From the sequence record PV733669.1: 53,728 bases of DNA; one strand, given 5' to 3'. How positions within the stretch are numbered: the stretch's first letter is position 1; each line of letters begins with the position of its first letter. The notes under the pieces are model-generated. The model searched no databases. It saw nothing but the letters and a program-made list of their open reading frames with translations, and was not told the DNA's origin. Shown piece after piece: positions 3,851 through 15,448 of the stretch. Origin of the DNA: Escherichia phage ES2-BCU-3. A program made the position numbers and the translations under genes.

Positions 3851-5413
3851 ATGTCAATACCTTCAGCGACTACTCCGAATGTTGGTTACCAACGTCCTGA
3901 GTTAACGAAGAATTCTGGCAAATACAATATGATTAAAGATTGTATTGAAGGCCAGCAGGCTGTTAAACGTCGTAAAACGTTTTATCTTCCGCAGCCAGAC
4001 CCTACTAACTGTACGGCGGAAAACATTCGCCGTTATGAACAGTACCTTGAGCGTGCTGTATTCTATAACGTGCTGCAGCGTACCCTGTCAGGTATGACTG
4101 GTCTTGTTTTCCAGCAGCCACCTGAGATGCTCATGCCGGATGATATGGAAGTCCTGCGTGTAAATATCGATGGTGCTGGTATTGGTGCAATCCAACAGAT
4201 GCGCCGTTGCTTTAAATCTGTATTGGCCTTTGGTCGCGCAGGTATACTTACTGACTTCCCGCCGGCTCGTGTCGACAGCGAAGGCAAGCAACTTGGTTTT
4301 ACTCGCCAAGAGCTGATGGATGGTACAGTACAACCTACCGTTACACTGTACATGCCGTGGCAAGTCATTAACTGGCGTGAAGAGTATCGCGAAGGTAAAG
4401 TTGTACTGACTCAGGTAGTTATCTGTGAGCAGATTCCTGGCGTTACAGACGGATTCCAGCAGGACTACACTCCTGTGTGGCGCCACCTGTTCCTTGACAG
4501 CAATGGTGATTGCACACAAACAATCTGGGTTAACAAGGGTGACCCCAAAGCTGATAACGTTTCTGGCGGCGCACTGTACGTTGCACAGCAGACTGCGGTT
4601 ATGAAAGACTCGAACGGTAAGCCTCTCAAGTTTATCCCGTTCAAGTTCATTGGTTCTGAAACCAACAGTGCTGAGATTGACCCGCCGCCAATGTATGACC
4701 TGGCTGTGCTGAACATCGCGCACTATCGTAACTCAGCTGACTACGAAGAATCATGCTTTATCACAGGTCAGCCCACAGTATGGGCGTCTGGTCTGACAGA
4801 AGCATGGGTCGAAGATGTTCTCAAGGGTGAACTGCGCCTTGGTTCTTACGGCGGTATTCCGCTGCCAGCTAATGCTGCTGTGGGCATGATTCAGACGAGC
4901 CCTAACACCCAGCCGTTCGAAGCAATGAAACAGAAAGAAGCGCAGATGATTGCTATCGGTGCTCGACTGATTCGTGAGAATGGTAAAGTAGAACGTCGTG
5001 AAGTTGAAATTAAAAACGAAGCAGCATCTGAAGCCTCGTTAATCGTAACTGTTGCGCAAAACGTTGAAGCAGCATATCGTGAAGCACTTGGTTGGTGCGC
5101 TCTGTTCTACGGGCATGACCCCAAAGAACTGACTATCAACCTGAGCTATAACTTCATCTACAGCCAGATGACATATCAGGAACGTCAGCAGCTGGTAAAT
5201 GAATGGCTCGCAGGTGCAATCACCTTCACCGAAATGCGTAGCAACCTGAAACAAGCTGGCATTGCTAAACTTACTGATGATGAAGCTAAGAAAGCCATTG
5301 ACGAAGAGATGGCTGAACGTGACGCACGGGAAGTAGCAAAAGAAGCTGAAAAGAATGCTCAAGCAGCTAAGAACAACAATGTGGAAGAAAATAATCCAGA
5401 AAAAGTTGAGTAA
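3851..5413 (+). CDS. Portal protein (putative)
   Basis: 520-aa ORF directly downstream of terL, the conserved position of portal genes; acidic C-terminus. Confidence 0.55.
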   Translation: MSIPSATTPNVGYQRPELTKNSGKYNMIKDCIEGQQAVKRRKTFYLPQPDPTNCTAENIRRYEQYLERAVFYNVLQRTLSGMTGLVFQQPPEMLMPDDMEVLRVNIDGAGIGAIQQMRRCFKSVLAFGRAGILTDFPPARVDSEGKQLGFTRQELMDGTVQPTVTLYMPWQVINWREEYREGKVVLTQVVICEQIPGVTDGFQQDYTPVWRHLFLDSNGDCTQTIWVNKGDPKADNVSGGALYVAQQTAVMKDSNGKPLKFIPFKFIGSETNSAEIDPPPMYDLAVLNIAHYRNSADYEESCFITGQPTVWASGLTEAWVEDVLKGELRLGSYGGIPLPANAAVGMIQTSPNTQPFEAMKQKEAQMIAIGARLIRENGKVERREVEIKNEAASEASLIVTVAQNVEAAYREALGWCALFYGHDPKELTINLSYNFIYSQMTYQERQQLVNEWLAGAITFTEMRSNLKQAGIAKLTDDEAKKAIDEEMAERDAREVAKEAEKNAQAAKNNNVEENNPEKVE

Positions 5414-5418
5414 AGCTA

Positions 5419-5447
5419 TTTACTTTATGCTTACTGGGTTATATAAT
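5419..5447 (+). promoter_or_regulatory. Sigma70-like promoter (TTTACT-17-TATAAT)
   Basis: TTTACT 5419..5424, TATAAT 5442..5447; followed by the structured GC-rich leader 5455..5529. Confidence 0.45.
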
Positions 5448-5591
5448 CCGTTTTGTCAACCGCGCAACAGCCGGCCACGAGAGTCTGCAGGGCTCAGTGG
5501 ATTTCGGATGGCTGGCTGCGCGGTTTGACCCAAACCTGTTCGGAGCCCACTTGAGTGGATTGAGCCCCTCTCATATAGGATTGAAAATATT

Positions 5592-6308
5592 ATGGCACTT
5601 AAAACAGTTGTAACTGACCTGAACGAAATTGACGAAGGCTTCCGTGGCCTGTACGTCAAAGACGATGCTTCTGGTGCGTACCGTCTGGACGTTGAGCCTG
5701 ACGAGAAAACCACCAAAGAGCTGGAAGAGCTGCGCAAAGAAAAACAGCGTATGGAACAGCACACCAAAAAGCTTCTCGAAGAAAAGAAAAAAGAAGCTGA
5801 ACGTGCTCGTCTGGCTGAAGAAGAACGTGCTCGCCGCGACCGTGACGTTGAGTCGCTGGAACGTTCTCTGCGTGAAAAGCACCAGGCTGACATCGAAAAT
5901 GCGAACAGTCGCACAGCATTACTGCAGGCGCAACTCGAAAGCCAAATGGTTGATAACCTGGCAATGCGTCTGGCAAACGAACTCTCTGACACACCAGCAC
6001 TGATTATGCCGCACATCAAATCTCGACTGCGCGCTCAAGAGATTGATGGTAAGTGGCGTACCTCTGTTGTTGATGTCATGGGTAACCCGACTGCTACCAC
6101 GCCGGATGAGCTCGTTGAGCACATGCGCGCTGATAAGCAGTTTGCACCTCTTGTGCGTGGAACCAAGGCTGGCGGTGGCGGTGCCAACGGCGGCGGAGCT
6201 AATCCTGGTGGGAACGGCAATGGTGAACAACAGCACTCCTTTGGGGGCGGGGACGACCGCGTAGCACGTGCTCGTGCTAAAATTCAAAATACTCAATGGG
6301 GCAAATAA
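5592..6308 (+). CDS. Scaffolding protein (putative)
   Basis: Charged, coiled-coil-rich 238-aa protein between portal and capsid genes; Gly-rich C-terminal segment. Confidence 0.5.
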   Translation: MALKTVVTDLNEIDEGFRGLYVKDDASGAYRLDVEPDEKTTKELEELRKEKQRMEQHTKKLLEEKKKEAERARLAEEERARRDRDVESLERSLREKHQADIENANSRTALLQAQLESQMVDNLAMRLANELSDTPALIMPHIKSRLRAQEIDGKWRTSVVDVMGNPTATTPDELVEHMRADKQFAPLVRGTKAGGGGANGGGANPGGNGNGEQQHSFGGGDDRVARARAKIQNTQWGK

Positions 6309-6311
6309 AAT

Positions 6312-7289
6312 ATGTCACTGTATATCTTTAACGAACAGGTACGTTCCACAGCTACCGAGCTGGTCGACCAGGACGTACAGAAGTTTAACGAAGCTTCCGC
6401 CGGCACCCTCATCCTGGGTAACCAGTACGTAATCGGTGATTACGTTGAGCAGGCCATGTGGCAGCTGGTTGATGGTATCGCTAACCGCCGTAACGCGTAT
6501 GCTGGTACCAACAAAGTTAGCGCTCAGACTCTGGGTCAGATTCTGGACCGCTCTGTTAAAATCGACGGCCGCGTTGGTCCTCTGAACATCACCTCTACCA
6601 TGATGCGTCGCATCGGTGCTGGTGACTCTGAGCCGGCTGCTGTTGTTGCTGCGCAGGCTTCTGCCGCAATGTTCCAGGATTACCTGAACACCACTGCTGC
6701 GTGTCTGGTAGCTTCTATCGGTAACAACGCCGATGTTGTTCTGGACGTTACTTCTGCTTCTGGTACCGCTGCAAACGTTACCATGCAGAACCTGAACAAA
6801 GTCAACGCGAAGATGGGTGACCGTTCTCAGCAGATTCGTGCGTACATCATGCACTCTACTGCGTTCCACTCCCTCATCGACCAGGCTATCAACAACACGG
6901 AACACCTGTTCCAGATTGGTGACCTGAACGTGTACAAAGACTTCCTGGGTCGTCGTTATGTCATCTCCGACATTCCGTCCCTGGTTGATGGTTCTGGCGC
7001 TACCGCTAAGTACCATGTTCTGGGCCTGACTCCGTCGGCTGCTATCGTTCAGGTTGGTGGCCTGTACGACATGGTGACCTCTGAGCAGACTGGTGGTGAG
7101 AACATCCTCCGTCAGATGCAGGGTGAATACGACTTCAACGTGTCGCTGAAAGGCTACAGCTGGGTCGGTCACAAAGCTGGTCAGTCTCCGACTGATGCAG
7201 ACCTGGCAGATGCTGCTTCCTGGTCTAAAGTTGCGACTTCCAACAAAGACACCGCTGGTGTTATGTTGACTGCGAAGTCTGCAATCTAA
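6312..7289 (+). CDS. Major capsid protein (putative)
   Basis: 325-aa ORF after the scaffold gene; followed by a strong intrinsic terminator, typical of a highly expressed capsid gene. Confidence 0.6.
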   Translation: MSLYIFNEQVRSTATELVDQDVQKFNEASAGTLILGNQYVIGDYVEQAMWQLVDGIANRRNAYAGTNKVSAQTLGQILDRSVKIDGRVGPLNITSTMMRRIGAGDSEPAAVVAAQASAAMFQDYLNTTAACLVASIGNNADVVLDVTSASGTAANVTMQNLNKVNAKMGDRSQQIRAYIMHSTAFHSLIDQAINNTEHLFQIGDLNVYKDFLGRRYVISDIPSLVDGSGATAKYHVLGLTPSAAIVQVGGLYDMVTSEQTGGENILRQMQGEYDFNVSLKGYSWVGHKAGQSPTDADLADAASWSKVATSNKDTAGVMLTAKSAI

Positions 7290-7308
7290 ACCCACAAACG
7301 GGACTAAC

Positions 7309-7340
7309 AAAAGGCGTGCTGACGAGCACGCCTTTTTTAT
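7309..7340 (+). terminator. Rho-independent terminator
   Basis: Stem ggcgtgct(7313..7320), loop gacg, stem agcacgcc(7325..7332), then TTTTTTAT. Confidence 0.8.
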
Positions 7341-7368
7341 TTACAGCAATAAAGTTCTGGTGTATAAT
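7340..7368 (+). promoter_or_regulatory. Sigma70-like promoter with extended -10 (TTTACA-17-TGtTATAAT)
   Basis: TTTACA 7340..7345; TG at 7361..7362; TATAAT 7363..7368. Confidence 0.55.
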
Positions 7369-12801: not shown

Positions 12802-12830
12802 TTTACATGGTTGAAGCGCCAGCTTATAAT
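12802..12830 (+). promoter_or_regulatory. Sigma70-like promoter (TTTACA-17-TATAAT) with -10 inside a palindrome
   Basis: TTTACA 12802..12807, TATAAT 12825..12830; 8-bp perfect inverted repeat gcgccagc(12816..12823)/gctggcgc(12833..12840) brackets the -10. Confidence 0.55.
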
Positions 12831-15419: not shown

Positions 15420-15448
15420 TTTACACAGACTTTATTCCTGTGTATAAT
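15420..15448 (+). promoter_or_regulatory. Sigma70-like promoter with extended -10 (TTTACA-17-TGtTATAAT)
   Basis: TTTACA 15420..15425; TGTGTATAAT 15439..15448. Confidence 0.55.

Follow-up and report, generated by a model that had tools for sequence, protein, structure and literature searches.

A conserved, probably pseudoknotted leader RNA ahead of the scaffold and major capsid genes of Escherichia phage ES2-BCU-3

Between the portal and head scaffolding genes of Escherichia phage ES2-BCU-3 (sequence record PV733669.1; 53,728 nucleotides (nt), the whole of which is called the window here) lies a conserved, strand-specific RNA structure that is bounded by the +1 position of a promoter and by the scaffold ribosome-binding site. 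We consider it rather probable that this element, which runs from position 5455 to about 5579, is a structured cis-acting 5' leader RNA of the scaffold/major-capsid messenger RNA (mRNA) that would protect the 5' end of the transcript and control scaffold translation. The leader represents a new family of RNA within the known general kind of cis-regulatory mRNA leaders, and is confined to a small phage clade.

Results

A long hairpin forms the largest arm of the leader

A preliminary description of the window had pointed to a guanine-plus-cytosine (GC)-rich imperfect inverted repeat at 5455-5529, drawn as a single stem of about 18 base pairs (bp) enclosing about 37 nt. The repeat is present as described, with an exact core, AACCGCGCA/TGCGCGGTT, at 5458-5466/5517-5525. 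The hairpin is far beyond chance: as RNA, its 75 nt fold at -42.2 kcal/mol, against a mean of -25.9 ± 2.8 kcal/mol for shuffled versions (z = -5.78), and none of 200 shuffles folds as stably. The stem itself is better drawn as two helices, P1 (12 bp) and P2 (8 bp), and part of the interior that had been described as enclosed forms a third, P3 (Table 1). The proposed extent also needed revision, in that the hairpin is only the largest arm of a probably pseudoknotted leader; the conserved structured element measures about 120 nt and continues for about 50 nt past the hairpin end.

P1 and P2 together make a near-continuous 20-bp duplex, whose sole interruptions are a 3-nt bulge and a single bulged U, and so attain the length of about 20 bp or more of near-continuous double-stranded RNA expected of an RNase III site. 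The apical 8-nt loop, AGGGCUCA, is invariant. P1 begins 5-8 nt 3' of the -10 hexamer in all seven lineages, and the transcript is therefore predicted to have a fully paired 5' end. On this predicted start, the transcript would carry few unpaired nucleotides at its 5' end, as is characteristic of 5'-terminal stabilisers.

Several other readings of the hairpin region were set aside. The hairpin does not resemble an intrinsic terminator, as it is followed by CCAAACCTG and the site is not listed in the terminator scan. A K-turn (kink-turn) at the ACA bulge was rejected, judged by eye, since no G·A pairs come after the bulge. The direct repeat AGTGGATT is not kept in distant relatives. Two of three GGAUU motifs (5499-5503, 5557-5561 and 5578-5582, the last in the Shine-Dalgarno (SD) sequence) lie within this repeat; the motifs resemble CsrA-type GGA sites, and sequences L014, L016 and L017 keep GGA only in the first and SD copies.

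Compensatory changes point to selection on the plus-strand RNA

We aligned 15 distinct versions of the leader from about six lineages, which comprise Loughboroughvirus, Rosemountvirus and metagenomic relatives (portal identity down to 63%). Whole-structure counts were made on a covariance-model-based alignment of 12 sequences. In this alignment 93.9% of cells are standard pairs, a figure that falls to 35-39% on sliding the 3' partners by 1-3 columns. Pairs changed on both sides number 12, as compared with 1-3 in the slid alignments and 5.5 ± 1.5 in column-shuffled ones, and none of 500 shuffles reaches 12. Such a conserved fold with covariation is the pattern looked for in riboswitches.

Compensatory base changes support both P1, with seven pairs changed on both sides, and P2, with two. 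Two P1 positions show G·U intermediates, in the series C-G / U·G / U-A and A-U / G·U / G-C, and other P1 positions switch from CCGCGCA/UGCGCGG to CAGCACA/UGUGCUG, CCGUACA/UGUACGG or GGCUCC/GGAGUC. P3 is 100% paired, its C5488-G5497 pair becoming U-A in three sequences. The covariance model scores 92-130 bits on the plus strand and 17-32 bits on the minus strand, and each G·U pair would turn into an A·C mismatch if the minus strand were folded instead; these observations thus argue that selection acts on the plus-strand RNA and not on the DNA.

The apical loop probably forms a pseudoknot

Seven of the eight loop nucleotides, GGGCUCA, are perfectly complementary to UGAGCCC, which is part of a second invariant stretch, UUGAGCCCCU, 60 nt downstream. 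All seven pairs are standard in 15 of 15 sequences, because a C-to-U change in the loop is matched by a G-to-A change in its partner in L014, L016 and L017 (C5493-G5564 to U-A). The duplex has an energy of about -14 kcal/mol, and the pseudoknot and P3 taken together are 100% paired with two covarying pairs. Judged from the sequences, a pseudoknot in the leader RNA is probable. A second GAGCCC (5543-5548) was considered as the partner and rejected, as it is not conserved in L014-L017; it is kept only in the main group (L015 has GAGCGC and L014 UAGCUA) and may offer a further alternative pairing with the loop GGGCUC.

RNAalifold prefers a different arrangement of the apex, P3alt, in which GAGUCU (5481-5486) pairs locally with GGGCUC across a GCA triloop. 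P3alt is mutually exclusive with P3 and the pseudoknot, is 98.5% compatible with the alignment and includes three covarying pairs. Some of its covarying columns have other possible partners: for column 47 there is column 38, and column 28 could lengthen P2. In seven of seven lineages the loop-presenting fold is the more stable, by 0.4-7.2 kcal/mol, pseudoknot energy not counted. P3alt may be a folding intermediate, a second switch state or a coincidence.

The 3' domain reaches the Shine-Dalgarno sequence

Downstream of the hairpin, three helices (P4, P5 and P6) make up a 3' domain that closes at or beside the scaffold SD. These helices were checked by manual segmentation against all 15 sequences, because model R2 (built on the main group, with P6) aligned distant sequences poorly in this domain. 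Among the relatives P5 changes from AGAG/CUCU to UUUAG/CUAAA and P4 from CCAC/GUGG to CGC/GCG or CUAA/UUAG. P6, which we regard as a probable helix, changes from CCUGUU/AAUAGG to CUUGUU/AAUAAG in L014 and to CCAAUUAAC/GUUAAAUUGG in L017. P6 overlaps the SD in 12 of 15 sequences; in L014, L016 and L017 its 3' strand ends 1-5 nt upstream of a separate SD. AGGA before the ATG is kept in all relatives, and the record of phage S144, a 99.3% identical relative, annotates a ribosome-binding site at the same place.

The leader is conserved within one phage clade

The window represents a Loughboroughvirus-type Salmonella myophage and is 99-100% identical in this region to ZCSE2, S144, PK3 and others, and the leader is kept in 60 of 60 phage records that cover the intergenic region. 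The leader is as conserved as the flanking genes or more so, and more so in near relatives. In Rosemountvirus genomes it is 93-94% identical, whereas the flanking genes are only about 82% identical. Compared with BP63, the window is 97.6% identical in the leader and 82-86% in the flanking 300 nt; the corresponding values for fHy-Eco03 are 87% and 72-78%. Relatives whose portal homologues are 63-76% identical all have a portal-scaffold gap of about 170-220 nt with the element.

Relatives at about 47% portal identity lack the element, have gaps of only 15-34 nt there and carry a MuF-like gene between portal and scaffold. This Mu F-like minor head gene lies at 3924-4979 in L235 and at 4001-5089 in L236. 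The leader-bearing clade has no such gene at this place, and the gain of promoter and leader coincides with the change in gene order.

A scan for the loop pattern GANTCTGNAGGGNTCANNGGA returned 11 matches in viral, at least 120 in metagenome and 88 in genome collections, which were filtered by complementarity and then with covariance model R1. Among the matches listed, the full element occurs only in this phage clade (L010, L047 and L155), and the rest score 24 bits or less and share the loop pattern only. Portal and scaffold queries of IMG/VR yielded no clade genomes beyond the five already in the set, and E. coli genome and plasmid collections contain no host copy.

Some records that carry the leader have unexpected labels. 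In two E. coli 'complete genome' assemblies, 'plasmids' of about 53 kb, which is the size of the phage genome, carry it at 98.5-99.3% identity (NZ_JBVNBN010000003.1, 52,771 bp, and NZ_CP067310.1, 53,474 bp), and near-identical sequence is present in L155 (JAEWER010000021.1, 'Bacillota MAG'), in PP583539 ('Listeria phage') and in PQ800152 and OR810919 ('Klebsiella phage'). For the plasmid, Bacillota, Listeria and Klebsiella records, the stated host or replicon looks doubtful, or else carrier states or contamination may be involved.

The leader heads a two-gene transcription unit

The portal-scaffold gap that holds the hairpin is 178 nt long in the window. The sigma-70-type promoter at its start matches the consensus at 10 of 12 positions in a consensus scan, and its TTTAC and TATA(A/T)T elements are invariant across all relatives and present also in L014. 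A promoter is annotated at the equivalent site in the S144 GenBank record, and the S144 paper predicted it computationally (PMC7432712). From the promoter spacing, transcription is predicted to start at 5454/5455. The promoter and scaffold start given in the preliminary description agree with the consensus scan, the S144 annotation and the PHROG matches (Table 1). The S144 paper also reports the mass-spectrometric detection of S144 gp10 and gp11 (PMC7432712).

Table 1. Coordinates of the leader elements and neighbouring features in the window
Feature	Position	Strand	Remarks
P1	5455-5466/5517-5529	+	12 bp; U5524 bulged
ACA bulge between P1 and P2	5467-5469	+	
P2	5470-5477/5509-5516	+	8 bp
P3	5484-5488/5497-5501	+	above variable internal loop; closes 8-nt loop A5489-A5496
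Pseudoknot 5' strand (probable)	5490-5496	+	GGGCUCA; within apical loop
Pseudoknot 3' strand (probable)	5561-5567	+	UGAGCCC; directly ahead of P5 3' strand
P4 hairpin	5547-5550/5555-5558	+	CCAC-UUGA-GUGG
P5	5542-5545/5568-5571	+	GGAG/CUCU
P6 (probable)	5535-5539/5575-5579	+	CCUGU/AUAGG; outer helix
Shine-Dalgarno sequence	5577-5580	+	AGGA; A5577, G5578 and G5579 in P6 3' strand
Sigma-70-type promoter	5419-5447	+	-35 TTTACT 5419-5424, 17-nt spacer, -10 TATAAT 5442-5447
Portal gene	3851-5413		PHROG match phrog_145
Head scaffolding gene	5592-6308	+	PHROG match phrog_206; start codon 5592-5594
Major head protein gene	6312-7289	+	PHROG match phrog_247; begins 3 nt past scaffold stop
Intrinsic terminator	7309-7336	+	12-bp stem and T-run; directly past capsid gene; strong
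Transcription unit, scaffold and major head protein	5592-7336	+	terminator at end; next promoter at 7340

The first 20 kb of the window contain five near-identical promoters of the form TTTAC(A/T)-17-TATAAT (2044-2072, 5419-5447, 7340-7368, 12802-12830 and 15420-15448), all on the plus strand and each directly ahead of packaging or morphogenesis genes. The late region is apparently divided into short, separately promoted units, with the terminator at 7309-7336 abutting the next promoter. The other four promoters, of the form TTTACA-17-TATAAT (2044, 7340, 12802 and 15420), have leaders of only about 22-30 nt; a long structured leader is thus specific to the scaffold/capsid unit.

GC content is 60.8% in 5460-5579, compared with about 43-48% in most flanking windows, which bears out the initial impression of a GC-rich element. 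ARAGORN found no transfer RNA or transfer-messenger RNA. The region had also been described as lacking coding potential, and we agree that it is non-coding, because relatives differ by 1-2-nt frame-breaking indels and the open reading frames (ORFs) annotated there conflict in strand and frame; a small-ORF reading of the leader was rejected on the same grounds. Such ORFs, labelled 'hypothetical protein' (XSB44677, XCH40687, XAG95430 and XUL01379), lie over the leader in four GenBank records (L002, L003, L005 and L008), at window positions 5456-6019 on the minus strand and 5355-5528 on the plus strand. They are almost certainly spurious calls over non-coding RNA.

The leader resembles several known RNA systems in part

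A search of the whole window against Rfam 15 (4227 models) gave no matches at gathering thresholds, and the leaders of four relatives likewise matched no Rfam model. At E ≤ 10, a 301-nt region gave only a chance match to a small nucleolar RNA (E = 8, 15 bits versus a gathering score of 50). A term search of the text of the S144 paper (PMC7432712) returned no mention of any leader RNA or hairpin.

As in autogenous operators, a structured element sits at the ribosome-binding site, with the fold ending at 5579, the SD at 5577-5580 and the ATG at 5592. The closest parallels in architecture are the pseudoknot operators of T4 gene 32, E. coli rpsO/S15 and the alpha operon/S4, in which a hairpin loop likewise pairs downstream near the ribosome-binding site and the mRNA encodes a structural or assembly protein required in abundance. 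The phage leader has no sequence or Rfam similarity to these operators, places the 3' strand of its pseudoknot 10-30 nt ahead of the SD, and is larger (about 120 nt and six helices).

Like E. coli ompA-type 5' stabilising stem-loops, the leader places a hairpin at or within 1-2 nt of the predicted 5' end of a highly expressed message, but it adds an invariant loop, an invariant downstream sequence and a pseudoknot, for which a stabiliser has no need. With the SAM-II, preQ1-II/III and ZTP riboswitches it would share two sub-domains joined by a loop-strand pseudoknot and, possibly, an expression platform within the fold; unlike them, it matches none of these models, has no ligand candidate and occurs in one small phage clade. 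It does not have the form of the HK022 put sites, as it consists of one long arm and a pseudoknotted 3' domain instead of two adjacent stem-loops.

Scaffolding protein autoregulation in phage P22 concerns the same gene class. Work by Casjens and Adams and by Wyckoff and Casjens, both from 1985, is said to have found that unassembled P22 scaffolding protein controls its own synthesis post-transcriptionally, and we know of no RNA operator defined for this autoregulation. P22 is unrelated to the present phage clade, and any link between the leader and scaffold feedback is purely conjectural. The titles of both 1985 papers are listed in PMC5529062.

Discussion

The leader could plausibly work as follows. 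Host RNA polymerase would start at the sigma-70 promoter, so that the first transcribed nucleotide would form the base of P1. 5'-Terminal stem-loops protect transcripts against RppH and RNase E, and the fully paired 5' end would be expected to shield the mRNA from this 5'-end-dependent decay. The long P1-P2-P3 arm would display the invariant loop, which would pair with UGAGCCC in the P4-P5-P6 domain to give a compact pseudoknotted fold whose 3' edge, P6, would overlap or directly adjoin the SD. Formation or stabilisation of this fold would most likely restrict 30S binding, and thereby set the output of scaffold and possibly also of capsid protein, with 30S access to the scaffold start controlled either by pairing of the SD within P6 or by an occluding bound factor. 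By analogy with P22 scaffolding protein autoregulation, a phage head protein is a candidate for the stabilising factor.

Several points weigh against this account. The transcription start, the RNA structure and the regulatory effect are all predictions, and the sampled diversity is small (15 distinct sequences from about six lineages). The pseudoknot is supported by one covarying position that probably reflects a single evolutionary event, and P3alt is equally compatible with the alignment, so that the fold of the apex may be ambiguous as judged by comparison of sequences. In the 3' domain, P4 is mismatched in seven sequences, with A·C and G·G mismatches in the fHy-Eco03 group, and P6 is weak (-4.8 kcal/mol), with per-sequence shuffle fractions of 0.03-0.17 and no significance in L015. 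The SD lies outside P6 in L014, L016 and L017, and plain SD sequestration is therefore not a universal mechanism. Finally, there is no clear pocket for a ligand or protein, because most of the conserved nucleotides that look unpaired fit alternative pairings.

Four other explanations compete with a regulatory leader. It seems unlikely that the element does no more than protect or process an abundant late mRNA, as a 5'-terminal stabiliser hairpin or a site for RNase III cleavage, the rest being non-regulatory. The position of P1 at the predicted +1 in all lineages and the P1-P2 duplex, which falls in the length class of RNase III substrates, would suit such a role, and no terminator separates the portal gene from the leader, so that read-through transcripts initiated at the 2044 promoter might require processing. 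Structure by itself would suffice for a stabiliser, however, and this reading leaves unexplained the invariant loop, the invariant downstream stretch, their compensated complementarity and the conserved P5/P6 arrangement beside the SD. Stabilisation and regulation are compatible, and the best explanation includes stabilisation. We hold it decidedly unlikely that GGGCUCA alternates between P3alt and the pseudoknot in a riboswitch-like bistable switch by which a small molecule or other signal toggles scaffold translation. All 15 sequences fit either pairing (98.5-100% compatibility), and both pairings covary; where L014, L016 and L017 depart from the otherwise invariant apex, each substitution preserves pairing in one fold or the other; and the size, the pseudoknot architecture and an SD in the closing helix recall riboswitch aptamers. 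Set against this are the failure to match any Rfam riboswitch even at E ≤ 10, the lower stability of P3alt in seven lineages, the other partners open to its covarying columns, and the lack of a candidate ligand or a conserved unpaired pocket.

An action at the level of transcription, as an HK022 put-like antitermination RNA, or in trans, with the leader releasing a small RNA or a component of a ribonucleoprotein, is very improbable. Being a structured RNA close to the promoter of a late operon, the leader does occupy the position of a put site, and high conservation and a compact fold would suit a stand-alone RNA. There is, however, no evident need for antitermination, because the operon comprises only two genes and the strong terminator at its end is succeeded by a new promoter, and the architecture is unlike the twin stem-loop of put. 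Downstream of the structure there is no terminator or U-run by which a small RNA might be released, and no second copy or target-like complement was found within the window. Least supported of all, and next to negligible in our estimation, is a DNA-level site such as a pac/cos packaging signal, a protein-binding palindrome or a cruciform. The preliminary description had left the choice between a regulatory leader and a DNA site such as a packaging signal, and had proposed conservation in relatives and the mapping of packaging termini as checks. A GC-rich inverted repeat near terminase and portal genes would fit a DNA site, and the GenBank records of several relatives are linearised exactly at window position 5415. 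These comprise about 10 records (MT074434-MT074446; birk, brunost, ciri, emiel, rivia, triss and others) that start at the first intergenic bases, which is probably an annotator's choice, as the ends of S144 map elsewhere. In the S144 paper, restriction mapping places the physical genome ends, with short direct repeats, between gene clusters E and A and not in the morphogenesis cluster (PMC7432712). The G·U wobbles, the far higher plus-strand scores and the pairing of the loop with a distant single strand also argue against a DNA site. The regulatory option has fared better: the element begins at the predicted +1, and its structure is kept in the 15 distinct versions, with helices preserved by compensatory changes.

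A more ambitious reading of the leader RNA, which we regard as doubtful, is that it represents a new class of phage regulatory RNA, a bistable pseudoknot that senses the state of head assembly (through free scaffold or capsid protein) or a metabolite. If the effector were the scaffold protein, the leader would, to our knowledge, give scaffold autoregulation its first defined RNA operator. Scaffold and capsid proteins are needed in large, balanced amounts, and how this balance is set post-transcriptionally in tailed phages is largely unknown. The leader is compact and can be tested by mutation, in phages that are under development for biocontrol of Salmonella and E. coli, and it might serve as a portable module for expression control or mRNA stabilisation. 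Its description would correct a repeated spurious annotation of small ORFs and would extend the short list of structured cis-regulatory RNAs from phage late operons.
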